Shown in pieces: positions 4,250-39,085 of a stretch of DNA of 39,085 nucleotides. Position 1 is the stretch's first letter. Each line of letters opens with the position of its first letter. The notes under the pieces were generated by a model. It made no database searches. It worked only from the letters and a program-made list of their open reading frames with translations, and was not told where the DNA came from. The DNA is from an uncultured Dehalococcoidales bacterium (GTDB taxonomy: Bacteria > Chloroflexota > Dehalococcoidia > Dehalococcoidales > BS750m-G39), in NCBI GenBank assembly GCA_964456815.1, contig CAYWCO010000002.1:1-39085 (forward strand), given 5' to 3'. Both the position numbers and the translations under genes were made by a program.

Positions 4250-5251
4250 ATGGGATTTGAAACTCAAGACGTTGAAAGAAAGATTATCTCTATCCTGAAG
4301 GTTCTCAGCGATTCTGAGAAGCCCCTGGGTTCCAGGGTGATTGCCCGCCGCTTGAAGGACAGCGGAATTGAGCTGGGCGAGAGGGCGGTGAGATACCACC
4401 TCAAGCTCATGGACGAGCGTGGACTGACGCAGCTTGTCGGGCGGCGGGATGGCCGAGCCCTTACCGATCAAGGTATTGAAGAGATAGAGTATGCCCTGGT
4501 GAAGGACAAGGTTGGTTTTGCTATCTCCAGGATTGAGTTACTCGCCTTTCGTACTGATTTTGATCTGGACAAGCGCACCGGTTCTATTCCAATAAATGTT
4601 TCCTTTTTCCCGAAGGCGAGGTTTAGCCAGGCACTTCAGATAATGAAGCCAGCCTTCAAGGCCGGGCTTGGCGTCAGTGAGCTGGTGGCGGTGGCGCAGG
4701 CAGGCGAAATGCTGGGGGAGATAGCGATACCCCAGGGTAAGGTGGGGTTAGCTACGGTCTGCAGTGTTGTCATAAACGGTATCTTGCTCAAGCTCGGCGT
4801 GCCCATGGACTCTAAGTTCTCGGGCATTCTTCAGATTAGAAATTCAAAGCCTCTTCGCTTTGTTGAGCTTATTCACTATGCCGGGTGTTCTCTTGACCCC
4901 TCGGATGTGTTCATCAGGGCTGGGATGACCTCGGTATCTAAGGTGGTGAGGGAAGGTGGGGGGAATATACTGGCTACCTATCGGGAGATACCGGCACAAT
5001 GCCAGCCGATAATGGAGAAGACGATATCTAGACTGAAAGAGGCTGGTATAGGCGGAGTACTGGTTATGGGGGGTATCAGCGAGCCGGTGTGCGAGATAGC
5101 GGTAGAACTTAATCGAATCGGGATAATCCTTGTCAACGGGCTGAATCCCGTGGCTGCGGCTGTGGAAGCCGGCGTGGAAGTTGAAAATTATGGCATGAGC
5201 ACGGTCATGGAGTACCAGAATTTGATTAATTTTCAGGAGCTTATAAATTGA
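4250..5251 (+). CDS. nrpR: NrpR-type regulator (winged-helix plus one DUF128/NrpR domain), homologue of the methanogen nitrogen repressor
   Basis: An N-terminal winged helix (KIISILKVLSDSEKPLGSRVIARRLKDSGIELGERAVRYHLKLMDERGL) is followed by a ~250-aa domain. This is the architecture of short NrpR proteins. Family recognised from memory, not searched. Confidence 0.65.
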   Translation: MGFETQDVERKIISILKVLSDSEKPLGSRVIARRLKDSGIELGERAVRYHLKLMDERGLTQLVGRRDGRALTDQGIEEIEYALVKDKVGFAISRIELLAFRTDFDLDKRTGSIPINVSFFPKARFSQALQIMKPAFKAGLGVSELVAVAQAGEMLGEIAIPQGKVGLATVCSVVINGILLKLGVPMDSKFSGILQIRNSKPLRFVELIHYAGCSLDPSDVFIRAGMTSVSKVVREGGGNILATYREIPAQCQPIMEKTISRLKEAGIGGVLVMGGISEPVCEIAVELNRIGIILVNGLNPVAAAVEAGVEVENYGMSTVMEYQNLINFQELIN

Positions 5252-6018
5252 AAACAGTAAGTATCATACCCTGCCTCGATGTAAAAGAGGGGAGGGTGGT
5301 AAAGGGAATAAAATTTGTAAACCTGAGGGACGCCCGCGACCCGGCAGAAGCCGCGGCCGCTTACTGCCGAGAGGGCGCCGATGAGCTTGTCTTCCTTGAT
5401 ATATTTGCCACCGTAGAGAATAGAGGGACAAGGCTGGAGTGGGTCAAAAAGGTCTGTGATGTGGTCACGGTTCCCTTCACCGTAGGCGGTGGCATAGGTA
5501 GCATCAAGGATATGAAGGCACTATTTGATTTGGGCGTGGACAAGGTCTCGATAAACACGGCGGCGGTTAGAAACCCGGAGCTGATTAGAGAAGCAGCCGG
5601 AGAGTTCGGCGGGGAGAGGCTGGTAGTTGCCATTGACGGCAGGAAGAACCCGGCAGATAGCCGCCTTCCCCACCTTGAGGTTGTGGTCAAGAGCGGTGAG
5701 GAGTCAACGGGCATGGATATTGTTGACTGGGCTAAGCGGGTGGAGGAGTTAGGTGCCGGCGCCATTCTGCTCACCAGCAAGGATGCCGATGGGACCAAGG
5801 ACGGCTACGACCTGGAGATGACAAAGGCGGTCGCCGAGGCCGTATCCCTGCCGGTCACCGCCTCTGGCGGTGCCGGCAAACTGGAGCACCTTTACCAGGC
5901 GGTGGCTATAGGTAAGGCATCAGCGGTATTAGCCGCTTCCATATTTCACTTCAAGGAGATAACAATAGCCGAGGCTAAGAAGTACCTCAAGGAGAGGGGA
6001 ATAGCGGTTAGGGACTGA
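5248..6018 (+). CDS. hisF: imidazole glycerol phosphate synthase cyclase subunit HisF
   Basis: Motifs IIPCLDVKEGRVVKGIKF, VVAIDGR, LLTSKDADGTKDGYDL, TASGGAG and AASIFHF. The TTG start overlaps the nrpR stop (TTGA), with AGGAG 8 nt upstream. Confidence 0.85.
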   Translation: MKTVSIIPCLDVKEGRVVKGIKFVNLRDARDPAEAAAAYCREGADELVFLDIFATVENRGTRLEWVKKVCDVVTVPFTVGGGIGSIKDMKALFDLGVDKVSINTAAVRNPELIREAAGEFGGERLVVAIDGRKNPADSRLPHLEVVVKSGEESTGMDIVDWAKRVEELGAGAILLTSKDADGTKDGYDLEMTKAVAEAVSLPVTASGGAGKLEHLYQAVAIGKASAVLAASIFHFKEITIAEAKKYLKERGIAVRD

Positions 6019-6052: not shown

Positions 6053-7324
6053 TTGACTCTAGAGGGAGAAAATAAATTGGAAAAGATTAATCCATTTGAG
6101 GTGGTAAAGCAACAGGTAGACAGGTGCGCCGAAATTCTGGACCTATCACCCGAAATAACCATAATGCTTAAAACCCCCATGCGAGAACTCCACGTATCAC
6201 TGCCAGTACGGATGGACGACGGCTCTCTCAGGGTATTCCAGGCGTTTAGGGTTCAGCACAATGATGCCCGGGGCATAACCAAGGGAGGCATTAGATTCCA
6301 TGCTGATGAAACAATTGATACCGTTCGGGCACTGGCGGCATGGATGACGTGGAAGTGCGCCCTGCTTGACTTACCCCTGGGAGGAGCCAAAGGCGGCGTT
6401 GTTTGCAATCCCAAGGAGATGTCTGCCGGTGAGTTGGAACGTCTGAGCCGGGCATATGTGCGGGCCGTATTCCAGTTCATTGGGCCTGATAAAGATGTGC
6501 CTGCCCCCGACGTTTATACCACTCCGCAAATTATGGCCTGGATGATGGACGAGTATTCGGCAATTGCGGGCAAGCCGCAATTTGGTGTTATCACGGGCAA
6601 GCCACTGCCCATTGGCGGTTCTCCGGGACGGAATGATGCTACGGCTCGTGGTGGGATGTATACTATCCGTGAAGCCGCCAAGGCGCTTGGCATTGACCTA
6701 GGCAAAGCCACCGTCGCCGTGCAGGGTTATGGAAATGCCGGATATTATGCGGCCCGGTTATGCGGCGAGCTTTTTGGCTCTAAGATATTAGCCGTGTGTG
6801 ACAGCAAGGGCGGGGTATTCTGCAAAACCGGGGTTGACCCGGAGGCGGCTTATGCCTGTAAGACCCAGACTGCCTCGGTGTGCAATCTGCCAGACATGGA
6901 ACGCATCTCCGCGGAGGAACTCCTGGAAATGGACGTGGATATACTTATACCAGCCGCCATAGAAAACGTAATAACCGAAAAGAATGCCCCGAATATCAAA
7001 GCCAAGATTGTTGCCGAGCTGGCTAACGGTCCAACGACGCCAGAAGCCGATGATATTCTATATAAAAATGGGGTTCACGTCATCCCTGACTTTCTGTGCA
7101 ACGCCGGTGGCGTGACGGTTTCTTACTTTGAGATGGTCCAGGACTCTTACATGTACTTCTGGGATGAAGCCGATGTTCGCCAGCGCCTGGATAAGAAGAT
7201 GACCGCAGCCTATCAGGCTGTTTTGGATACAAGCCGAGAATACAAGGTAAATATGCGACAGGCAGCCTACGTAAGGGCTATCGAACGTGTGGTAGAAGCA
7301 ATGAGACTTCGTGGCTGGGTCTAG
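6053..7324 (+). CDS. gdhA: glutamate dehydrogenase (Glu/Leu/Phe/Val dehydrogenase family)
   Basis: Motifs KGGIRFH, PLGGAKGG and VQGYGNAGYY, and a length typical of hexameric GDH. An alternative TTG start at 6077 has the better SD (GAGGGAG, 8-nt spacing). Confidence 0.9.
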   Translation: MTLEGENKLEKINPFEVVKQQVDRCAEILDLSPEITIMLKTPMRELHVSLPVRMDDGSLRVFQAFRVQHNDARGITKGGIRFHADETIDTVRALAAWMTWKCALLDLPLGGAKGGVVCNPKEMSAGELERLSRAYVRAVFQFIGPDKDVPAPDVYTTPQIMAWMMDEYSAIAGKPQFGVITGKPLPIGGSPGRNDATARGGMYTIREAAKALGIDLGKATVAVQGYGNAGYYAARLCGELFGSKILAVCDSKGGVFCKTGVDPEAAYACKTQTASVCNLPDMERISAEELLEMDVDILIPAAIENVITEKNAPNIKAKIVAELANGPTTPEADDILYKNGVHVIPDFLCNAGGVTVSYFEMVQDSYMYFWDEADVRQRLDKKMTAAYQAVLDTSREYKVNMRQAAYVRAIERVVEAMRLRGWV

Positions 7325-7342
7325 CCCATCTTTTTATCCGAA

Positions 7343-7388
7343 GTGGGCGGTAGAGGACTTGAACCTCTGACCCCCTGCGTGTAAAGCA
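7343..7388. repeat. 46-bp direct repeat: orphan copy of tRNA-Val positions 30-75 (distal att site of the island)
   Basis: gtgggcggtagaggacttgaacctctgaccccctgcgtgtaaagca is identical to 17794-17839. Identity stops at 7389 (c versus g) and at 7342/17793 (a versus g). Confidence 0.9.
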
Positions 7389-7824
7389 CTCTTGTTAAAA
7401 GGCGGAGGCCGCTTGCCTCCTTTCTGAGAGTCTATTATACCTCCCCGCGTTGCAGCAGTCAATCCCCCCTTGCATTTTGGGTTTGGCTTACAAGCAAACA
7501 ATCCGCTAAATCGTACAATACCCCCTGCCGTAATTCTGGGGGGAGCCTCAGCCTGAACGACGTTGTGTGGCTTGACAATGAGAGCCCTTTTATTGTAAAC
7601 TTTGTTTGTCTTAGCCTAGGTTATTAGATGGTTGTTTAAGACACCTCAGATTTACCCGCGTATTGGGTGACCCTAGCTTTTGCTAGTGTATGGAAGTGGA
7701 GTGTCTGTCTAACCAGCCTTCAGGATAAGTTGCCCCAAATTCTTGATTGTAGGATTGCTTTTGCTTTCAGCTACTTGACCCACCTCAGCACGGTGGGCGG
7801 AAACAGAGGAATAAAAATACTAAA

Positions 7825-9135
7825 ATGGTATCTATCTACTTTGTGGGAACACACAAACCTATAATGTGCGGGATAGCCGACTACACGAGCTTTGTTGCTC
7901 GTGAGATTCCTGCTGGAAGGTGGGGCGTCATATCTTTTGATGTCGAGAGGTATGGCGCGCCACTAATAATTGATGACGAGGTAGTGACAGGTGGGGTTTG
8001 GTACGGCATTCCCGGTCGCCATGAGTTCTCTGCCCCGGTGATTCTGCAGGGGCTTAAAGAACTTGGCGCCAAAAATGAAGACGCCGTCTTGTGGTTTCAG
8101 CATGAGAATGGCATCTGGCCTAGTAGCATACGGTTCACTGCTATGCTCAAGAACCTGAATATACCGAAGGTGGTGACTTTTCACACCCTTCATTTCCAAA
8201 GCTCCGAAACTCTGACCGGCCTACGCAGGGATCAATATGACCTATTGAAAGTCTTGCTGCCTTACGTCGAGGCTATCACCGTTTTCAGCAGCGGCGTTTA
8301 CCATGCCGTCACTTCGGCATTCCCTGAACACCGCGACAAGGTCTATGTCATGAAGCATGGCATAAATCCGTATCCAGAGATAAGTCACCTCAGTCGTAAG
8401 GAGGCTAAAGAGAAACTCAATGACTTCCTGCTCCATGAATCAGGTCTTGACCGGAAAACAAAGGAAGCCCTGGGCAAGCGGCGGATATTTCTTGATTCAG
8501 ACACTGTGGTGGTAGGCCAGACTGGATTCCTGGAACCAGCGAAGAACTCTGAATTGCTTTATTCTGCCAGAGATAGTTTACAGAAGGCTATCCCTCGGCG
8601 GAGAATCGTAGCGGTACGCATTGGTGTCTCAAGAAACGAAGTGCAGAGAATTTACACTGAAAAGCTGCGAAGATGGCAGAATGGGAAGAATAAATTTCTC
8701 CTCGAGGTTCGGCTGCCTCAGGATATACTTCCTCTGACACAGCGGGCTTTCGATGTCAACTTCTACTGGCCTCACGAGTGCACTCAAAGTGGTCTTCTAT
8801 CACACGCTCTGGGTGTCGGTGCCATAGTAGCTTGCCGCGATTTGGAGGGTGTTGGCGAGGCAGTGAAAGAGGCTGGCGGGATTGTGGATACAGACCTAAA
8901 GCATTTGCTGTTTAAGATAACAAACCTCATACTCAACCCGGGTCTTGGAGAAGGGATAGAACAAAGAGCGCTAAGCTATGCTGTAGAGTTCTCCTGGAAA
9001 AACCAAGCTCGGAGACATTATGAGTTGGCTGAGCGTATCTTATCCCCAACGCCTAGACGGTCATCGCCACATTCACCTCCACCGGTGCAGTCTATTGGCA
9101 CCATGGCTACTTCAGCAACTGCGAAGTCCATTTAA
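7825..9135 (+). CDS. divergent GT-B (GT4-like) glycosyltransferase
   Basis: The N-terminus MVSIYFVGTHKPIMCGIADYTSF resembles the ...P.ECGIA.F... start of GT4 mannosyl/glucosyltransferases. The C-terminal half (WPHECTQSGLLSHALGVGAIVACRDLEGVGE) resembles a degenerate EX7E region. No clear SD. Confidence 0.55.
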   Translation: MVSIYFVGTHKPIMCGIADYTSFVAREIPAGRWGVISFDVERYGAPLIIDDEVVTGGVWYGIPGRHEFSAPVILQGLKELGAKNEDAVLWFQHENGIWPSSIRFTAMLKNLNIPKVVTFHTLHFQSSETLTGLRRDQYDLLKVLLPYVEAITVFSSGVYHAVTSAFPEHRDKVYVMKHGINPYPEISHLSRKEAKEKLNDFLLHESGLDRKTKEALGKRRIFLDSDTVVVGQTGFLEPAKNSELLYSARDSLQKAIPRRRIVAVRIGVSRNEVQRIYTEKLRRWQNGKNKFLLEVRLPQDILPLTQRAFDVNFYWPHECTQSGLLSHALGVGAIVACRDLEGVGEAVKEAGGIVDTDLKHLLFKITNLILNPGLGEGIEQRALSYAVEFSWKNQARRHYELAERILSPTPRRSSPHSPPPVQSIGTMATSATAKSI

Positions 9136-9377
9136 TCATTCCAACTCAGGTGTATACTCTTGATACCGCTTCTCTTCATGCTCATACTATAAATCCCTGT
9201 TCAAAGGCATAATACAACTCGTTTTATGGCGGTAACACTAAAGAATTGTCTGGGGAGTTCTCGCTAGGTCAACATAATGCTAAACTAGGGAGACAAGATT
9301 GGCGGATTGCAAAAATATTGTAGTTATGCGAAAATTCCTAGAGTCCTTTTTCGGTATCTATTTTGAAGGAGAATAGC

Positions 9378-12300
9378 GTGAAGGACGTCAATCATATTAC
9401 CTCTTCAGGCTTAAGTTCTCAAACCAGCACCCCTCGGGAAAAGGTAGAAGTAGCCTCTCTCGAGAAAAGTGAGGAATGCTTCAGAGCGGCTATAGCAGAG
9501 CCACTAAGCCAGGCGGAGAAAATAGGCGAGGCTGGTATAGTGGTGGGGATTCCCTTCTATGACGAAGACGATACTATCGGGGCAGTGTTGAAAACGGTAA
9601 GAGAAGGGTTAGAGGAATTTTATCCTGACCAGAAATGCGCCATCGTAGCCGCTGGCTCCCCCGCAGGCGGGAAAGCCCTCAAGGTAGTGAATGACCTTTC
9701 TCAAAGCAGCGAGATAAGCCAGATTGCCTTCTTGCTGAATGATGAAAGGATAAATGGGAAGGGCTGGGCTTTGCGGGCAATTATGGAAGTAGCCCGAATC
9801 CTCGGTGCTGACCTGGCCATCGTGGAAGCTGATTTGAGAAGCCGGGAGAGGAATGGAGAGACTGAAGGACTCGCCCCAGATTGGATTAACCTTCTCCTTG
9901 AACCTATTAAGAGGGAGAAGGCGGATTTAGTTATCTCTCGATTTAACCGCCATTACTTTGAGTCCCCTATTTCCACTCATGTGCTTTATCCACTGCTCAC
10001 CGCGATCTATGGTTGTCCCATTCATGACCTGGTAGGGGGACAATGGGGGATTTCTCACCGCTTGCTTCGAACCTATCTGAAAACCCCGTGGAGTACCGAT
10101 ATTGGAGGCTATGGTATAGATAGCTGGCTGGCTACCATAGCCATTACCAATGAAGCCCTAGTTTGTGAAGCCAACCTGGGAATAAAGGTTCACTGGCCAA
10201 CGGCGGGGAAGGCAGAGCTTGTGCTGCGCAAGCTAGTCAGAGTGCTGTTCGAGCGAATCGTGACTGATAAAAGATGGTGGCGAGAAACAGAGGAGATTGG
10301 CGAGCCACCTTCATTAAAGCCTCTGGCTACCTTCGGGGTCAGGAAGGCACATCAACCCGATGAGGTGCAGATAATTCCTCAGCAACTGATAGCTAGATAT
10401 AAACGAGGGTTCAACGAATTCCATTCCCTTTACCAGAGGATTCTCCCGCAGGAAGTCTACCGACAACTGGAGGAGCTGGCTGGGACCGAGACTAAACGGT
10501 TTGTCTTCCCGGCTCAGTTGTGGGCACAAATTGTCTATCACCTTCTGCTGGATTTTGCTTTTCGACGGGAATTTGCCAAGGACGACCTGCTGAATTCCTT
10601 TATCCCTCTTTATGAGGGGTGCGTGGGCAGCTTTGCCCTGGGAATAAAAGCCCTGAAAAATAGGATAAAACGCTCCCTCCCCCAGGAAGCAGAACGTCTG
10701 GTATCTTTGGAAGCCCAGGGGCAAATAGAGGCGCTGTCGAATGAATTTCTCCGCCAGAAATCAGACTTCCTGGCAACGTGGGAAATGAGGGAGGAAGCCT
10801 TCAAGCCGCCGGTGCCTAAAGTGACCTACCGTGAGTTCATTCCCGGGGTCCCCTTGGTAGTGCCCTCAGAACTCACTACCCCGAAGGGGAAGGTAGTAGC
10901 TACTGCCAATGGCACCTACGATTCCATATTTCATAGATACAAGAGAGAATTTGAACAATTTGTTTATGAAAAGCTGAAAGTCCCCCGAGATGCCAGTTCC
11001 CTGAAAATAGCGGAAGGAATAAGAAATTTCATGCATCGGCTGGAGGCAGAGATAGACAAGACTCTCTTGCCGGGAGAGCTCTCTACCGTAGAAGGAACAC
11101 AGGAGGTAGCCGAGGCCATATTTCGCCACTTCCCCCGTCAGGATAGCTTTGCTTTGATTCCGGAAATGGCTTCCAGGTTTTTGCAGCAATACCCACCCTA
11201 CAATCTGCTGACCAAGCTAGGCTACAGCAACCTTGAGGCACTGCTTAGTCAATATGAACCCAATGATGCTCTAGCCCTAGCTGGTTGGTCAGAAGAGCAA
11301 GAATATGTGGAGCAGATATGGGGGCTAACCAAGAAAAGTGTCCGCCCAGAACATTTTCGAACCCGCCCTGTGAAACCGCTGGTGGTCCGCCATGAAGAAT
11401 TCCCCTCGCTGGTAGAGATGAAAGAAATCGGTGCTCTTAGCAAGATTACTGGGAGGGTAGTAATAAGCAACCTGCACAAGGGCATGGGCGGCGAGTTCCC
11501 CAAATTGCGCTACTTTACCCATATTGCCAAGGCTATTATCGAGATTGAGAGGTTCGGTAAGATATGGCGAAGTTTCGCCGAGGAAAGGAAAGACTTCGGG
11601 GAAAAGGTGATAAATTCACTAGAGGGTCATTGGGGGAGGGAGCCACTATCAGCCCATAATATTTTTGAAAACGGGCATCAGCGGGTGCTGGTAGAGCGGC
11701 TGGGGGAAATGGCGCAGCGAATCACCCAAGAAGCGGGCGGCGATGCCTCTCGCCTGAGCCTGGCTGAACACCTCCAAATTATGGCTGATTCTTATCACCT
11801 GGCTTTTGTCCTTCCCGATGGCACCTTCATCCCCTGCTCCGCCTGGACCTGGGCGAGTTACAGCTTTAATGGGGGAAAAGGATTGCCCCCTCCTCTTTCC
11901 CAGCATGTGGAGCGGGATTGGTCCTCACGGGAATTCCTCACCGAGTATTTCAAAGCGGGTGGAGGCAGGGAGGAAGCAATAGAGGAAAAGATTATAGACC
12001 TTATGGAGGAGGGCAGGGAATGGGAGGATTTAGCTCCGATGCTACTTGGGGAAGTAAAAGAAGCCGAGGGGGTAATGCCAGAAAAAATTGTCACCCCTGG
12101 GCAGCCGCCGGCAGGAGCCCTGAGCCGTTTTGCTGCCAATCCCATACTTGAGCCCATTAAGGAGCACCCATGGGAAGCAAAAAGCGTCTTCAATCCAGGT
12201 GTCATAAATCTAAAGGGCAGGGTTTATCTCATCTATCGGGCTTTGGGAGAGGATAACATCTCTCGCCTTGGACTGGCGGTAAGTAAAGATGGATTTAAGT

Positions 12301-13058
12301 TTACCGAAAGACTCGAAGAACCAATATTTGAGCCAAAGAGAAAGAGTGAAACCAGAGGGTGTGAAGACCCTCGGTTGACCCTAATCGGCGCTCGCCTTTA
12401 CATGGTGTATACCGCTTATGACGGCTTAGTGGCTCAAATTGCCCTCGCCTCCATCGGGGTTAATGATTTCCTGAACCACCGCTGGGGAGCCTGGCATAGA
12501 CACGGTCTGGTTTTCCCCGGCTTCACTGACAAAGACGGTACTTTATTTCCCGAACGCTTCAATGGGCGATTTGCCATGCTTCACCGCGTTGACCCACATA
12601 TATGGATAACCTTTTCTTCCCATCTGCGTTGTCCCTGGCCCCGGAAAGAGCACAAAATAGTGGTCGGGTCAACAACTGGCATGACATGGGATGGGAGGAA
12701 GATTGGTGCTGGGACTCAACCGATTAAGACCAAGTATGGCTGGTTGCTCATCACTCACGGTGCTGACCATTTTCATGTCTATCGGCTAGGGGTGATGCTG
12801 CTTGACTTGAGTGACCCACGAATCCTCCTTTATCGTTCACCCAATTCTATTCTCGAACCCACGGAGAAGTGCGAAATAGGAGAACCCGGTACGCATTGCG
12901 TACCCAATGTGGTTTTTACCTGTGGGGCAGTGCCACGTGAAGGTAACAAAGAGATGCTTGATGCTGAGGACGAAGTGCTAGTTTACTACGGTGCCGCCGA
13001 CTCAGCGGTGGCTGTGGCTACAGCCAAAGTTGCTGACCTCATCCCTGAGGAGTTATGA
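9378..13058 (+). CDS. 1226-aa fusion protein: N-terminal GT-A glycosyltransferase (GpgS/MGS-like), central domain of unknown function, C-terminal GH130 (beta-mannoside phosphorylase-like) domain
   Basis: GTG at 9378 has AAGGAG 7 nt upstream (the ORF-track TTG at 9363 has none). N-terminus: VVGIPFYDEDDTIG, GKGWALR, AIVEADL, PDWI, LVGGQWG, GYGIDSW. C-terminus (~last 330 aa): NPILEPIKEHPWEAKSVFNPGV, GCEDPRL, YMVYTAYDG, VYRLGVMLLDLSDP, VPNVVFTCGAV, VYYGAADS. These are the classic GH130/DUF377 pattern. Confidence 0.7.
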   Translation: MKDVNHITSSGLSSQTSTPREKVEVASLEKSEECFRAAIAEPLSQAEKIGEAGIVVGIPFYDEDDTIGAVLKTVREGLEEFYPDQKCAIVAAGSPAGGKALKVVNDLSQSSEISQIAFLLNDERINGKGWALRAIMEVARILGADLAIVEADLRSRERNGETEGLAPDWINLLLEPIKREKADLVISRFNRHYFESPISTHVLYPLLTAIYGCPIHDLVGGQWGISHRLLRTYLKTPWSTDIGGYGIDSWLATIAITNEALVCEANLGIKVHWPTAGKAELVLRKLVRVLFERIVTDKRWWRETEEIGEPPSLKPLATFGVRKAHQPDEVQIIPQQLIARYKRGFNEFHSLYQRILPQEVYRQLEELAGTETKRFVFPAQLWAQIVYHLLLDFAFRREFAKDDLLNSFIPLYEGCVGSFALGIKALKNRIKRSLPQEAERLVSLEAQGQIEALSNEFLRQKSDFLATWEMREEAFKPPVPKVTYREFIPGVPLVVPSELTTPKGKVVATANGTYDSIFHRYKREFEQFVYEKLKVPRDASSLKIAEGIRNFMHRLEAEIDKTLLPGELSTVEGTQEVAEAIFRHFPRQDSFALIPEMASRFLQQYPPYNLLTKLGYSNLEALLSQYEPNDALALAGWSEEQEYVEQIWGLTKKSVRPEHFRTRPVKPLVVRHEEFPSLVEMKEIGALSKITGRVVISNLHKGMGGEFPKLRYFTHIAKAIIEIERFGKIWRSFAEERKDFGEKVINSLEGHWGREPLSAHNIFENGHQRVLVERLGEMAQRITQEAGGDASRLSLAEHLQIMADSYHLAFVLPDGTFIPCSAWTWASYSFNGGKGLPPPLSQHVERDWSSREFLTEYFKAGGGREEAIEEKIIDLMEEGREWEDLAPMLLGEVKEAEGVMPEKIVTPGQPPAGALSRFAANPILEPIKEHPWEAKSVFNPGVINLKGRVYLIYRALGEDNISRLGLAVSKDGFKFTERLEEPIFEPKRKSETRGCEDPRLTLIGARLYMVYTAYDGLVAQIALASIGVNDFLNHRWGAWHRHGLVFPGFTDKDGTLFPERFNGRFAMLHRVDPHIWITFSSHLRCPWPRKEHKIVVGSTTGMTWDGRKIGAGTQPIKTKYGWLLITHGADHFHVYRLGVMLLDLSDPRILLYRSPNSILEPTEKCEIGEPGTHCVPNVVFTCGAVPREGNKEMLDAEDEVLVYYGAADSAVAVATAKVADLIPEEL

Positions 13059-13359
13059 TAAAACCTGTCGCTGGCGTGGCCTAACGGACTTGTTGTCCCG
13101 GATTCCTAGGTAAAGCCGAACACCACCTTGAAAATTATATCTTTAGTTCTACCTATTGAATGACTCGAGGAGCCGAGCAGGATTCGGAATTCGCTAGAAA
13201 GCGAAAGAGGCCGTAAAAACTATTACTTTTAGCCTGCACGATCTATCGACTATGATTTGACCGTTCTACGCAGCAATGAGCCAACTTGTTCACTCCCCCG
13301 TAGCTTCAAGTTTATTCCTGTGTAGATGGAAACCATGGAATTTTGCTATAGTGTGAAAT

Positions 13360-16068
13360 GTGAAAGAGCAATGGCATAATCTCAGCCCAGATGAAGCGTT
13401 GCTAGTACTTAATTCCAAGCACTCTGGACTAACTGAAACCGAGGCTCAGGCACAGTTAGTTCGATACGGCCCCAATGAGTTAAAGGGCAAGAGGAAAACC
13501 CCACCAATCCTGGTTTTCCTCAGACAGTTCCTTAGTCCACTTATATACGTACTCCTTCTCGCCGCTATAATCTCAATCGTTGTGGAGCACTTCATTGATG
13601 CTGGGGTAATACTGGGAGTGCTGTTACTCAATGCTGTTGTTGGCTTCACGCAGGAAACGCGAGCGGAGAAAGCTATGGAAGCTCTCAAGCGGATGGCGGC
13701 ACCCAGGGCGAGTGTAAGACGTGAGAGCAAGGTAAGGGAGATACCAACCAGAGAAATAGTACCCGGGGATATACTGCTCCTTGAAACCGGCGATAGAGTA
13801 CCCGCCGATGCCAGGCTAATAGAGGTATCAAATTTAAAGGTGAATGAAGCAACACTCACTGGCGAATCAATAGCTGTAGATAAGCATACCAAACCCGTCT
13901 CTGAAGAAGCGCCTCTAGCCGAGAGAAAGAACATGATATATACGGGCACCATCATTACCTATGGAAGAGCCACGGCTGTAGCTGTGAAAACTGGCTTGTC
14001 GACAGAGATAGGCAAAATTGTCACCACTATTCAGGAAGTCGAGACCCCAAAAACACCACTCCAGCAGAACATAAGGAAGCTTAGCCAGTATATCCTTGTC
14101 CTCTTCCTAGGAATTTGTGCTCTGCTGATAGTTGTCGGAGTGCTCAAAGGGATAGGGTGGCTGGAAATCTTTTTGGTAGCCGTCGCTGCTGCCGTCTCAG
14201 CCATACCTGAAGGATTACCAGCGGTTGTGACCGTTGTTCTGGCGATAGGCATGCATATGATGGCCAATCGTAATGCCATCATCCGCAAGTTGGTAGCCGT
14301 CGAAACCCTGGGTTCAGCTACTGCCATCTGTTCTGATAAGACAGGTACCCTGACTCTAAACGAGATGACGGCACGGCGTCTTTATGTCAGCGGTCAGTGG
14401 ATTGAGTTAACCGGTGAAGGTTATGAGCCAAAGGGAGAATTTCGCCAGGAAGGAAAGAGCCTGCATCCGCAAGATAAGCCACCTTTAACTTTGCTCTTAA
14501 AGATAGGAACCCTGTGCAATGACGCTCTGCTCACCAAGGAGGATGGGGGTTTCAGTATTTTGGGGGATCCAACCGAAGGCGCTCTGTTAGTAGCTGCGGC
14601 CAAGGCGGGAACGAACAAGGAAAAGCTAGAAAAAACCTTTCCTCGCCTCGATGAAATTCCCTTCCAGAGCGAAAAGCAATACATGGCTACCCTCCACCCC
14701 CAAGATGGAGGTCGAGTGGTCTATGTAAAGGGAGCAACCGAAAGGCTACTGTCCCTCAGTAAGTATCTCCTAAAAGAGAACGGAATTGCCCTCCTCGGCG
14801 AATCCGACGTTGAGGCTATTATGCAGGTTAACCTTTCTATGGCAAAAGAAGCCATGAGGGTCATCGCTATTGCCTATGCTGACCTTCCCGCCGAATTAGA
14901 AGAGCTGAAAGACGAAGACATCAGGGGCAACCTAGTTTTTGTTGGGCTGGTGGGGATGGATGATCCGCCCCGTGAGGAAGCCAAAGAGGCAGTAAGGCTT
15001 TGCAAGCAGGCCGGTATCAAAGTAATCATGATTACCGGTGACCACGAGGTGACGGCTGAGTCGGTGGCTCGCCAGCTGGGTTTACCACCGGGCAAAGCTA
15101 TAACCGGTGCTGAACTCAAGGAAATGAGCGATGAAGAATTATCAAGGCAAGTAGAGGATACTTTCGTTTTTGCCCGGATTGAGCCACTACAGAAGTTCAG
15201 GATAGTAAACGCGCTCAAAAGCCGAGGGCATGTTGTCGCCATGACGGGGGACGGGGTTAATGATGCCCCGGCTCTGAAAACAGCTAATATCGGCATTGCT
15301 ATGGGTATCACCGGCACTGATGTAGCCAAGGAAGCCTGCGACATGGTACTGGCTGATGATAACTTTGCCTCGATTGTGGCTGCCGTTGATGAAGGCAGGG
15401 CAATTTTCAACCGCCTGCGCAATGTGATTTTCTTCTTACTGAGCACTAACCTCGGAGAGCTACTGGCACTGCTCTTAGCCGTTACCTTTATTGGTAAAGC
15501 ACCGCTACTAGCCGTGCAGATTATCTGGGTTAATTTGGCTACCGACACGGCAGTGACTATCCCACTGGGGCTGGAGCCAAAATTCGGCGATGAACTCAAA
15601 TACCCTCCCCGCCACCCAAAAGCAGGCCTCATCTTCCCCGGGCTTCTCCTCCGTGTTGGCTTCCTGGCTCTAATGATGGGTGCGGGTATATTCTTAATCT
15701 TCAATTGGGCGCTCCCCAGGGTAGGCCTTGAAGAAGCCCGCACTCTTGTCTTTTGCTCACTGGTTGCATTTGAATGGTTCAGAGCTTTTAACGCACGCTC
15801 GGATGAATATACTATCTTCAGGCTGGGTGTATTCCGCAACCGCTGGCTGGTCATTTCCATCTCGGCAGCTATTATATTGCAGCTAGCTATTGTCTATGTG
15901 CCCTTTCTTCAGGTGGCTTTCGGTACAGTGCCTCTAACTATTAACCAGTGGGGTATTGTTATACTGGCCGGTTGCTCTCCCTTTATTATCGATGAAGTTC
16001 GTAAAGTCTTTTTCCCACAGCTCTTTACATTAGGGAAATGGAGACCATGGCGAAAATCAGCTATCTAG
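13360..16068 (+). CDS. P2-type (SERCA/PMCA-like, Ca2+/cation) P-type ATPase
   Basis: Motifs [32 protein letters not shown], and the TM4 motif [11 protein letters not shown] at 13360 is the first possible start, because an in-frame TGA lies 6 nt upstream. Confidence 0.9.
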
Positions 16069-16172
16069 GGCATTAGCTTCTAGACAGTAGGTACCTAATA
16101 AGGGTATCTAAGAGGGGAAGGTTATTGCTCCCGTTTGCTATTCAATTGCACAATCAGCCATTTTGTAGAGGC

Positions 16173-16661
16173 CTATCTTCGCCACTTACCGAACGATATG
16201 CGGTATAGTAAGCAGTCCCAAGAGTTTCCTAGTAGGTTGCCAAGCCGAATCATTCGAAGCATTAAGTGAATGGCTTCTACCTTTTCAAAGCCATATGTCT
16301 GCTGCAACTTTTGGACGGCTTCGGGGTCAGGATGAGCATTGGATTCAGCCCAGTGCTGCGCATAGATTACAGCCACAGCCTCCTCTTCTGGACAACTATC
16401 AACATCTCCTGACAGTAGCTGGCTAATCTCTTCCGGGGTAACCCCGCTTTTCAGCGCTTGCTTGGTATGGAAGTAGGAACAATAACGGCAACCTTCTACT
16501 GCGGTTACAGCCAGCATGAGCCTTTCCTGGAAAGCCGGTGATATTAACCCCTTATTCTTTACTTCCTTCAGTCGCTTTCTGTTTCTAATTGGAAAGCACA
16601 AGTCGCTAAATAATTCTTTCGGGTTGTTATATGTTCTTTTGTTGAATTTCATAACCAGCAC
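16173..16661 (-). CDS. carboxymuconolactone decarboxylase / AhpD-like family protein
   Basis: EGCRYCSYFH (CxxCxxxH) sits in an all-helical ~160-aa protein. The gene is convergent with the ATPase gene. Confidence 0.7.
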   Translation of the reverse strand: MLVMKFNKRTYNNPKELFSDLCFPIRNRKRLKEVKNKGLISPAFQERLMLAVTAVEGCRYCSYFHTKQALKSGVTPEEISQLLSGDVDSCPEEEAVAVIYAQHWAESNAHPDPEAVQKLQQTYGFEKVEAIHLMLRMIRLGNLLGNSWDCLLYRISFGKWRR

Positions 16662-17118
16662 TGCCGAAGGTTACAATATAGTGAGGAACACAATATTAGT
16701 ATGTTTAGTATAGCCACATCAAATGAAAAAGTCATCCCAGATGCAAAGGGGAAACCTGTTTCTGCTCGCATCACATTCCATCGGAATGTTACCCCAAACA
16801 ATGGGCGACCTCAGCGGGTAGCCAGGCAAATGTCTACACGTAAATGATGCGTTTAGCTATAGTTTTGTCGCTCCCTCAGATATGAGTCAACTGCTTTTTG
16901 TCTATAAGAGCGGCAGTATCATTTTGTAGGTTGAGGATGAGTTGGCATGGCATGGCATGGCGATTGGAAGAGTCACCCCGGTACCTAACGCTAAGTTATG
17001 TTGCCAAGCTTGTCTGCAAGATATGAGGTATCCTAAAACTAGGCTTGATTGAGCCGATGAATCTCTCTATAGGCTGGAGTCTTACCGTACTGAAAAGGTA
17101 GTGGCTGAACCGTATGGG

Positions 17119-17682
17119 CTACCGATAGCAGGCTGAGCACTCTAGACTGAGCATGCTCGGCTGAGGGTGCTGGGATGAGCAGGCTAAAGCCATTGTTCTA
17201 TGGGGTGACTGAGGCTGAAAATACAGGTGCTGGGAGTACTCACTAACGGCTTCACTTGAATAAGGCTGAACGACGTTCAGCTTTGGGTTTTTCAACTTGA
17301 TTTTAGCCAGAGGACTTTCCAGGATAAAGCTTTCCCTGACGCACCAGTTGAAGAAAGCCTTAAGAACGCAGTAGTAGTGGTGGACTGTGCAGTAGGTGGC
17401 CTTTGTCCGGCTTGACTCTGATCCGTTACCTTCAAGCCCCCATCGGTTCCCTTCTCCTGATACATAGGCTAAAAATTCCCTGATATGCCATTCTGTAATC
17501 ATGTGGACATCTTCAGGCCATTCTTGCCTTTCCGCGTACCACAGGAAACGCCGTAGATTGCTTTCATAATACTCAATAGTGCGGGGGCTTTTACAGTCGG
17601 TGCGCTGGGTGAGGATAAATCCTTTAACGAGAGAGTTAAGAGACGTACTGACGGGTGCTTGTGGTCTTATAGACACAACCAT
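17119..17682 (-). pseudogene. tyrosine recombinase/phage integrase, N-terminal SAM-like domain only (catalytic domain missing)
   Basis: SPRTIEYYESNLRRFLWYA...ITEWHIREFLAYV...KATYCTVHHYYCVLKAFFNWCVRE is typical of the integrase core-binding domain. After ~aa 145 the ORF becomes unrelated sequence and stops at 187 aa. No R..HxxR..Y catalytic region follows. Confidence 0.7.
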
Positions 17683-17791
17683 TTTTCATTTTGCGGAGCC
17701 GCCCATTTATACAATCAGGTGGTCTATATTATATCTAACCACCTATGCTTTTCACAACAACCATGAGGTCTAGAAATCTCATCTAGCCTTA

Positions 17792-17868
17792 TGGTGGGCG
17801 GTAGAGGACTTGAACCTCTGACCCCCTGCGTGTAAAGCAGGTGCTCTAACCAACTGAGCTAACCGCCC
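17792..17868 (-). tRNA. tRNA-Val(TAC), CCA encoded
   Basis: The reverse complement is GGGCGGTTAGCTCAGTTGGTTAGAGCACCTGCTTTACACGCAGGGGGTCAGAGGTTCAAGTCCTCTACCGCCCACCA. It folds by hand into a cloverleaf with anticodon loop TTTACAC. Confidence 0.9.
17794..17839. repeat. 46-bp direct repeat within the intact tRNA-Val (proximal att site)
   Basis: Identical to 7343-7388. Confidence 0.9.
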
Positions 17869-17871
17869 CTA

Positions 17872-17948
17872 TGGTGCGCTTGGCGGGTCTCGAACCCACA
17901 ACCTCAGCCTCCGCAGGGCTGCGCTCTATCCTGTTGAGCTACAAGCGC
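17872..17948 (-). tRNA. tRNA-Arg(GCG), CCA encoded
   Basis: The reverse complement is GCGCTTGTAGCTCAACAGGATAGAGCGCAGCCCTGCGGAGGCTGAGGTTGTGGGTTCGAGACCCGCCAAGCGCACCA. Anticodon arm: CAGCC-CTGCGGA-GGCTG. Confidence 0.85.
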
Positions 17949-17965
17949 CCAAACGCTTAAAAAAG

Positions 17966-18048
17966 TGCCGAAGGGGAGATTTGAACTCCCACATCCTTAC
18001 GGATACTACGCCCTGAACGTAGCGCGTCTGCCATTCCGCCACTTCGGC
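17966..18048 (-). tRNA. tRNA-Leu(CAG), long variable arm, CCA not encoded
   Basis: The reverse complement is GCCGAAGTGGCGGAATGGCAGACGCGCTACGTTCAGGGCGTAGTATCCGTAAGGATGTGGGAGTTCAAATCTCCCCTTCGGCA. Anticodon loop: TTCAGGG. Confidence 0.85.

Positions 18049-38191: not shown

Positions 38192-39085
<894 letters not shown>

Follow-up and report, generated by a model that had tools for sequence, protein, structure and literature searches.

The question raised by this locus is what lies between two copies of the 3' end of a tRNA-Val gene and how it came to be there. The window, by which we mean the whole stretch of 39,085 nt that was analysed (contig CAYWCO010000002.1 of assembly GCA_964456815.1, from an uncultured Dehalococcoidales bacterium), carries an intact tRNA-Val(TAC) gene, a fragment of an integrase gene (int) beside it and, beyond a set of cargo genes, a second copy of the tRNA 3' end next to a glutamate dehydrogenase gene. 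Our analyses indicated that the intervening DNA, about 10.4 kb at 7389-17793, is very probably the immobilised remnant of a member of a Dehalococcoidales family of tyrosine-integrase elements that recombine with the 3' 46 nt of tRNA-Val(TAC). Loci fetched from relatives are designated L### and homologous integrase proteins P####. The boundaries of the island and their immediate neighbourhood, including the attachment (att) sites, comprise the following features.

6053..7324, plus strand: glutamate dehydrogenase gene (gdh), chromosomal left flank (Pfam ELFV_dehydrog, 5e-79)
7343..7388, minus strand: distal att remnant, a displaced copy of the 3' 46 nt of tRNA-Val(TAC) that lacks the tRNA 5' half (exact repeat)
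7389..7424, no strand assigned: distal arm, "family A", CTCTTGnTAAAAGGCGGAGGCCGCTTGCCTCCTTTC, with a 6-bp GC-rich hairpin, near-invariant beside the att remnant
7434..7462, minus strand: outward-facing predicted sigma-70-like promoter, TTGACT-17-TATAAT, 11/12 (promoter scan)
16662..17244, no strand assigned: non-coding scar of 583 bp without coding signal, putative former site of the integrase catalytic domain and possibly of other backbone genes
17245..17682, minus strand: integrase remnant, residues 1-146, SAM-like core-binding domain of a tyrosine recombinase of roughly 313 to 323 residues (Pfam PF13495, Phage_int_SAM_4)
17683..17791, minus strand: int-proximal arm, with a hairpin abutting the tRNA 3' end, the palindrome AGGTGGT-N14-ACCACCT and then the int start (fold and promoter scans)
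17792..17868, minus strand: intact tRNA-Val(TAC) (ARAGORN and Rfam, 73.7 bits), with the proximal att copy as its 3' 46 nt (17794-17839)
17872-17948, minus strand: tRNA-Arg(GCG) (ARAGORN and Rfam)
17965-18048, minus strand: tRNA-Leu(CAG) (ARAGORN and Rfam), in the same cluster, right flank, at the end of a ribosomal-protein gene region

The two att copies, 7343-7388 and 17794-17839, were identical at 46/46 bases and form a direct repeat at both boundaries of the island. An earlier reading of this DNA, made from the letters alone and referred to below as the sequence-only reading, had claimed a perfect 46-bp repeat equivalent to positions 30-75 of the tRNA, and this was borne out: the repeat extends from the last 3 bases of the 5' strand of the anticodon stem to the first C of CCA. 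Halves of the 46-mer matched only these two sites within the window when up to 3 mismatches were tolerated, and 100 shuffles produced 0 matches. Calling of tRNA genes in the window with ARAGORN and Rfam detected the intact gene at 17792-17868 and no tRNA at the copy starting at 7343. A terminator-like hairpin was detected by gdh (7313-7333, terminator scan). The bases next to the displaced copy on its chromosome side are TT and not CA, so that the tRNA-Val gene present before insertion would not have encoded CCA and the rebuilt tRNA would take its CCA end from the element. An encoded CCA is likewise missing from some of the intact tRNA-Val genes of metagenomes (L097, L107 and L128).

Analysis of the int open reading frame (ORF; 17119-17682, minus strand) confirmed the claimed order of tRNA, integrase fragment, cargo and att remnant. 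The ORF starts 109 bp from the tRNA, matches PF13495 (6e-7; 30.2 bits against a cut-off of 27) and ends in an out-of-frame tail at 17119-17244. A protein search yielded 172 integrase homologs, the full-length ones having 300 to 323 residues and both PF13495 and PF00589. Six full-length relatives aligned to the window over residues 1-146 only (17682-17245), with 71 to 82% identity; among the full-length homologs, P0005, P0021 and P0028 were 77 to 82% identical over these residues. As the relatives match residues 1-146 only, approximately 175 residues, comprising the entire catalytic domain (PF00589, R-K-H-R-H/W-Y), have been lost. The rest of the window contained no match to the six full-length integrases in any frame at an E value of <0.1 (tblastn), and hence no catalytic relic, in agreement with the earlier statement that the catalytic domain was missing. 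The scar at 16662-17244 resembled neither full-length integrases nor any of the fetched loci and contained no notable ORF.

Full-length members of this integrase family were found directly 3' of tRNA genes in other Dehalococcoidales. The P0026 integrase follows the Leu(CAG)-Arg(GCG)-Val(TAC) cluster (L088), that of P0028 follows tRNA-Val(CAC) (L084-L087) and that of P0005 follows tRNA-Ala(TGC) (L083). An integrase was located after the Leu-Arg-Val cluster at L088, L103, L107 and L119, with the protein at L103 having 313 residues and lying directly after Leu-Arg-Val(TAC). The family was nearly absent from IMG/VR, with a single viral match of 31% identity.

The use of tRNA-Val(TAC) as an integration site was examined by scanning JGI metagenome contigs with the 46-mer. 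More than 118 exact occurrences were present among the matches listed, and 80 loci were fetched. The 5' half of the tRNA (≤2 mismatches) preceded the 46-mer in 61 of these, 15 were remnants without the tRNA and the rest lay at a contig edge; many metagenome contigs end at tRNA-Val. An integrase of the same superfamily, or a fragment of one, was located just downstream of the tRNA at 9 of 57 intact loci. The 46-mer had 0 exact matches in IMG/VR. On the element side, remnants carried one of two conserved kinds of flank, designated family A and family B, with the window belonging to family A. The family A arm was present in the window and in L093, L100, L110, L126, L129 and L165/L218; approximately 36 bp were conserved, the sequence beyond was unrelated, and the hairpin (7389-7424) folds on both strands. 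Family B ends (L109, L134, L142, L145, L153, L155 and L166) have >100 bp conserved and resemble the end of a gene. Because family B ends adjoin this 46-bp core too, the att site serves two or more unrelated element families. The int-proximal 109 bp (17683-17791) were common to L119, L103, L154, L124 and L134. With both conserved arms present, the island in the window can be recognised at either end as belonging to an element family; searches within the window detected neither internal degenerate att copies nor a second arm.

In L110 and L142, the att remnant is followed by another integrase. L129 contains two copies of att plus arm 1151 bp apart (1-46 and 1152-1197), either a mini-element or a tandem array. 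These three loci look like the tandem accretion expected at an integration hot spot. Two complete tRNA-Val(TAC) genes (5855-5929 and 7432-7508), 1.5 kb apart and one of them near a tmRNA gene, were observed in L097. Overall, these data identify tRNA-Val(TAC) as a hot spot for integration in Dehalococcoidales that are uncultured and live mostly in sediment. With the att core, both arms and the integrase family defined, the flexible genome of the group becomes easier to trace in metagenomes.

A compositional break was detected at the boundaries. The G+C content (GC) was 49.0% between the repeats compared to 54.3% in the left flank and 54.6% in the right flank; in 500-bp windows, the values were 49.2 ± 2.7% inside and 54.6 ± 2.7% outside (Welch test, P = 7e-9). 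Tetranucleotide distances to the flank profile were 0.26 to 0.37 inside and 0.16 to 0.24 outside, and an unsupervised fit with two change points identified 6901-17800 as the best segment. Third-codon-position GC was 0.49 to 0.53 in island genes and 0.55 to 0.68 in flank genes. The break that the sequence-only reading had described was therefore real in both the windowed GC and the tetranucleotide analyses, but its size had been exaggerated, at ~45% inside and ~58% in the flanks: the difference is about 5 points, not about 13. The GC of the cargo (49 to 51%) is near that of the L212 flanks (51 to 52%) and fits a donor among lower-GC relatives. The locus therefore combines insertion in the 3' part of a tRNA gene that remains intact, a distal repeat, an int gene beside the tRNA and a deviating composition.

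The age of the island was assessed from conspecific and related contigs. Four contigs carried an NrpR gene product identical to that of the window (ENA ERZ27245787, JGI 3300022553, JGI 3300025824 and Logan SRR6481098) and were 99.93 to 100% identical to the window over up to 15 kb. The island is present in three of them, and the remaining contig breaks off within the 46-bp repeat. Differences from the window were confined to a 92-bp patch in the GH130 domain (12887-12978) with 6 to 9 transitions, of which the six that were frame-checked were silent. In this patch the other conspecific contigs mostly have the L212/L213 alleles, and it looks like a short recombination or gene conversion tract. 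The nearest other lineage was L119 (JGI Ga0315541_1000498), in which rpsI, rplM and truA were 88.6 to 91.8% identical, with third positions at 79 to 84%. L119 has the same tRNA cluster, followed by an integrase of the same family that is damaged differently (residues 1-40 joined in frame to residues 145-213, truncated; 7781-8173) and then by unrelated genes. From the tRNA to int codon 40 (229 bp), the window and L119 were 96.5% identical, with 8 mismatches, far above the neutral level of the hosts. Comparison with the ~80% identity of host third positions indicated that this end of the element is younger than the split from L119 and hence that both lineages obtained or exchanged the element by horizontal transfer, the integrase decaying independently in each. 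A perfect 46-bp repeat, treated as a neutral remnant, corresponds to a divergence of less than ~6.5% since insertion (calculated 95% bound), which agrees with a young end. A recent acquisition followed by rapid inactivation, as proposed by the sequence-only reading, was thus supported in that acquisition was recent relative to speciation; a single event is too simple, as an integrase of this family at the same site in L119 was deleted differently and the cargo modules differ in divergence and in their arrangement elsewhere. The stump in the window ends (residues 144-146) where the second retained segment of L119 starts (residue 145), the two remnants being complementary; this coincidence may have arisen by chance, at an estimated ~5%, or may reflect a shared breakpoint at the domain boundary.

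The cargo consists of the following features.

7389-7824: non-coding stretch of 436 bp
7563..13054, plus strand: cargo block 1 (GT4-like gene and 1231-residue gene), 91.1% identical to L212
7825-9135, plus strand: GT4-like glycosyltransferase (Pfam, NCBIfam)
9363-13058, plus strand: 1231-residue protein with a GT-A N-terminal domain and a C-terminal GH130 domain (Pfam, NCBIfam, AlphaFold)
13279..16085, plus strand: cargo block 2, P-type cation ATPase module (gene 13360-16068; NCBIfam)
16173..16661, minus strand: carboxymuconolactone-decarboxylase/AhpD-like gene (Pfam CMD, 5e-11; NCBIfam ahpD_dom)

The ATPase was nearest to models of Ca2+ pumps of the PMR1/SERCA type (TIGR01522, 2e-218), with a score of 727 bits that lies below the equivalog cut-off of 798. 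The GH130 domain of the 1231-residue protein was recognised by Pfam (4e-54), its closest NCBIfam model being a beta-1,2-mannobiose phosphorylase, for which the score was below the cut-off. The first ~920 to 946 residues had no significant match among Pfam and PDB sequences, with GT2 just under threshold. An AlphaFold model of residues 1-929, built on a 25-sequence alignment, had a mean predicted local distance difference test (pLDDT) score of 82.5, and the top Foldseek matches were to mannosylglycerate synthase (2y4j/2bo7; E value of 1e-10; target TM score of 0.72), a likeness in fold at 13 to 14% sequence identity. The next matches were glucosyl-3-phosphoglycerate synthase and mannosyl-3-phosphoglycerate synthase. 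The protein is thus laid out as a GT-A domain, ~480 residues of mostly helical, unassigned fold and a GH130 phosphorylase-like domain. At least 176 full-length members of this family, with 55 to 92% identity, were detected; the named sources were Dehalococcoidia, Dehalococcoidales or Chloroflexota, the annotation was mostly just "glycosidase," and the family appears to be uncharacterised. From a GT-A domain that resembles glycosyl-glycerate synthases and is fused to a GH130 phosphorylase-like domain, with a GT4 enzyme and a cation pump beside it, a tentative role can be proposed: a mannoside-type solute or glycoconjugate may be made or turned over, alongside ion homeostasis. The cargo ORFs are full length, and the 1231-residue gene was 92.6% identical to its L212 counterpart overall and 86.8% identical at third positions, which indicated purifying selection on the cargo. 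These observations place genes of a glycoside or compatible-solute type and a cation pump on elements of this kind.

The five ORFs between the repeats (GT4, GT-A/GH130, P-type ATPase, AhpD-like gene and int stump) included no relaxase, coupling protein or type IV secretion gene, and no virion, packaging or lysis gene was present among them. The absence of transfer genes indicated that the island is not an integrative and conjugative element (ICE), and the absence of viral genes that it is not a prophage.

Comparison with related loci pointed to different histories for the cargo modules. Block 7563-13054 was located in L212 and L214-217 between ABC-transporter genes. The ATPase module, 13279-16085, was 96.5% identical to L212 (13953-16757) and 97.9% identical to L218/L165 (L218 9914-12726), being inverted in both, and third-position identity was 87% for the glycosyl-transfer genes and 93% for the ATPase. 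A homolog of the 1231-residue protein with 1232 residues and 92.8% identity occurs in a fourth context, in L213. The ends of the ATPase module were sharp in all three contexts and in both orientations, lying ~80 bp upstream and ~17 bp downstream of the gene. The module had no flanking repeats and no nearby recombinase, and the L212 block likewise had no flanking repeats; the module behaves like a gene-sized cassette. In L218/L165 it sits between a methylase/helicase/ATPase_2 cluster and the family A arm with its att remnant. This sister island carries, at L218 2188-9738 and beside the ATPase, an N6/N4 methylase, a ResIII helicase and an 821-residue ATPase_2 protein, a restriction or defence-like set. 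The parts of the window specific to the element backbone are 7389-7562 and 16086-17791 only. The cargo is a mosaic of modules that circulate among related Dehalococcoidales and have different histories.

The sequence of events can be reconstructed as follows. Recombination between the attP core of an incoming element and the tRNA-Val gene would have restored the tRNA beside int, with the original chromosomal 3' half shifted to 7343-7388 by gdh, as the layout suggests. A later deletion would have removed the integrase from about residue 147 onward together with the backbone that followed. As the catalytic part is deleted, the island cannot excise by itself, and with its cargo intact and under selection it would now act as a fixed fitness island, plausibly serving glycoside or compatible-solute metabolism and cation and redox homeostasis. 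The ends appear to retain regulatory relics of the mobile state: a hairpin after the tRNA and an outward promoter with a hairpin at the far end.

Several observations weigh against an integrated element of this kind. The GC shift is modest, at ~5 points, and the ribosomal-protein right flank may be richer in GC than the genome average. An empty gdh/tRNA-Val junction, which the sequence-only reading had taken as the ancestral state, could not be demonstrated: when gdh relatives were scanned in one genome per species and the 13 closest loci were inspected, none was followed by a tRNA-Val over up to 10 kb beyond gdh, and the downstream genes differed. Exact look-ups of the S9 and NrpR proteins recovered only conspecific contigs that are occupied or broken within the repeat. 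No such empty site was present in these four contigs or in any relative examined, and none of the metagenome loci fetched with the 46-mer contained gdh. Comparison of remnant flanks with the flanks of intact tRNA genes in other lineages yielded just 60- to 146-bp matches and no demonstrated pair of empty and occupied sites. Furthermore, the 8.5-kb cargo block is also found in a relative (L212, L214-217), where the ATPase is inverted and the neighbourhood contains neither an integrase nor an att site or tRNA-Val, and hence the cargo need not have arrived with this integrase.

This last point bears on a composite origin, in which the integrase and att ends derived from one element and the bulk of the cargo (7563-16085), instead of arriving in a single integration event, entered or was exchanged afterwards through recombination with related chromosomes or elements. 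We consider this almost an even prospect, falling slightly short of one. It would account for the cargo block being 90 to 93% identical to L212 (third positions, 87%) when the inverted ATPase is 96.5 to 97.9% identical to L212 and L218 (third positions, 93%), for the restriction of element-specific sequence to 7389-7562 and 16086-17791, for the pairing of the same ATPase and a family A arm with restriction-modification or defence-like cargo in L218, and for the 1232-residue gene of L213 in another context; the 92-bp patch among the conspecifics would then represent ongoing short-tract recombination. However, neither a degenerate att copy nor a second arm inside the island betrays a seam, and the modules have no flanking repeats. 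A different doubt concerns whether the island is dead or cis-mobilisable, as its two perfect att sites could allow it to be moved by a related integrase supplied from another part of the genome or by an element that enters the cell. Neither the 46-bp cores nor the conserved arms are damaged, integrases of the family are plentiful in these communities (172 homologs), the site holds tandem arrays (L110, L142 and L129) and the same idea was proposed for the Dehalococcoides ssrA islands (PMC3146451). There is no second integrase in the 39-kb window, however, and all conspecific contigs that cross the site are occupied, with no empty or circular junction among them, which says little either way because these assemblies are nearly clonal. 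We regard continued mobility of this kind as possible but rather unlikely.

Two further explanations were tried and rejected. A prophage or satellite remnant would be in keeping with full-length integrase relatives that head regions of small hypothetical genes, as in L088 (with a DNA polymerase III beta gene) and L084 (with a Rep-like gene and DUF87), but the DNA between the repeats encodes no phage structural, packaging or lysis function, the 46-mer had no exact match in IMG/VR and the integrase had the one 31%-identical viral match, making this origin highly improbable. Barely credible is the proposal that there was no horizontal transfer and that the 46-bp copy was left by a duplication of tRNA-Val, with native DNA in between. 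Loci with two tRNA-Val genes do exist (both TAC in L097; Val(CAC) and Val(TAC) with a 32-nt shared stretch in L088), and the cargo genes are typical of Dehalococcoidia. Against this, the copy ends exactly at the boundary of an integrase-type core, the adjoining arm is common to six other elements with unrelated cargo, an integrase remnant lies at the tRNA and the composition shifts at the boundary.

An immobilised, tRNA-integrated element resembles the classical tRNA islands, such as those at pheV in Escherichia coli (PMC11537424) and at asn-tDNA in Klebsiella pneumoniae (PMC4891358), in its insertion at the tRNA 3' end, the repeat at the far boundary and the position of int by the tRNA, and also in its atypical composition, adaptive and mosaic cargo, integrase decay and use of a hot spot. 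It differs from them in its Chloroflexota host, its tRNA-Val(TAC) target with a long 46-bp core, its small integrase of ~320 residues (XerC/D-like, SAM_4 plus Phage_integrase) and its cargo of glycosyl-transfer, P-type ATPase and AhpD genes in place of virulence or resistance genes. The Dehalococcoides ssrA islands have a tmRNA target, a 20-bp repeat, a CcrB-like serine recombinase (DsiB) in a six-gene integration module and reductive dehalogenase genes (PMC3146451). They belong to the same class (McMurdie et al. 2011, PMC3146451), with tandem islands downstream of a small stable-RNA gene, and share 3'-end direct repeats, low GC and, in some cases, the lack of their own recombinase, with the islands possibly being fixed or cis-mobilisable; the window differs in having a tRNA target, a 46-bp repeat and a tyrosine integrase. 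The island is a well-known kind of tRNA-integrated island in a poorly studied lineage, and the general view of how genomic islands work is unchanged by its finding. The conserved promoter-hairpin attP module and the gene-sized ATPase module seen in several contexts are modestly interesting details.

Cis-mobilisable elements (CIMEs) are att-flanked islands without recombination or transfer genes; such elements are mentioned in PMC3146451 as well. The island resembles these in having two intact att sites around its cargo and no working integrase, and differs from them in that a recognisable integrase stump is left.

The ends of the element were then considered for their regulatory anatomy. In the int-proximal arm, the fold z-scores were -2.45 and -2.69; the first is that of the hairpin abutting the tRNA, which includes the CCA end, has a ΔG of -16 kcal/mol and was conserved in six elements with one compensatory pair. 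The palindrome overlaps a promoter-like site at 17757-17728. The predicted promoter at the far end points through the family A hairpin and the att core and, as integrated, runs antisense toward gdh. A promoter scoring ≥10/12 was present in the same register in 4/6 family A ends, with the -35 box 72 to 74 nt from the core, where the upstream 74 nt were otherwise just 20 to 36% identical, and 0/20,000 shuffle rounds gave ≥3. From this anatomy we infer that, in the circular form, the far-end promoter would face across attP toward int, a layout expected of a switch between states. As int is destroyed in the window copy, such a switch can here be only a relic.

Experiments on ICEKp1, ICEclc (Pcirc) and ICEEc1 have shown that the integrated int gene is driven by the tRNA promoter and attenuated by leader stem-loops and that the circle uses a promoter at the far end (PMC13023037, PMC5812530). 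The element in the window likewise has int directly downstream of the tRNA, stem-loops in the leader and an outward promoter at the opposite end. It differs in being known from its anatomy, in lacking conjugation genes, in its destroyed int and in the invariant hairpin that its family has between the far-end promoter and the core. A broader proposal has two parts: that small, non-conjugative Dehalococcoidales elements share a conserved attP module (promoter, invariant hairpin, 46-bp tRNA core, tRNA-abutting hairpin and int) acting as an excision-state switch, and that single genes such as the Ca-type P-type ATPase move between islands and chromosomal sites as gene-sized cassettes. Taken jointly, the two are speculative and improbable. 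If true, the switch would extend the ICEKp1/ICEclc mechanism to a distant phylum and to minimal elements, and an ATPase cassette without recognisable repeats or recombinase would imply an undescribed route of cassette exchange.

The flanks of the island are chromosomal in character. To the right lie the ribosomal-protein genes and the first part of a 23S rRNA gene. The latter lies at 38192-39085, on the strand opposite to the ribosomal-protein region, with no 16S rRNA gene upstream of it within the window, and the rRNA genes may be unlinked. In the left flank, the order glutamate synthase-NrpR-hisF-gdh is kept in Dehalococcoidales metagenome-assembled genomes and the best gdh match was 84% identical; the host is a Dehalococcoidales-like Chloroflexota bacterium. 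The NrpR-type nitrogen regulator of this segment (4250-5251), which is of an archaeal style, lies between a glutamate synthase domain gene and hisF-gdh, an order that its Dehalococcoidales relatives retain.

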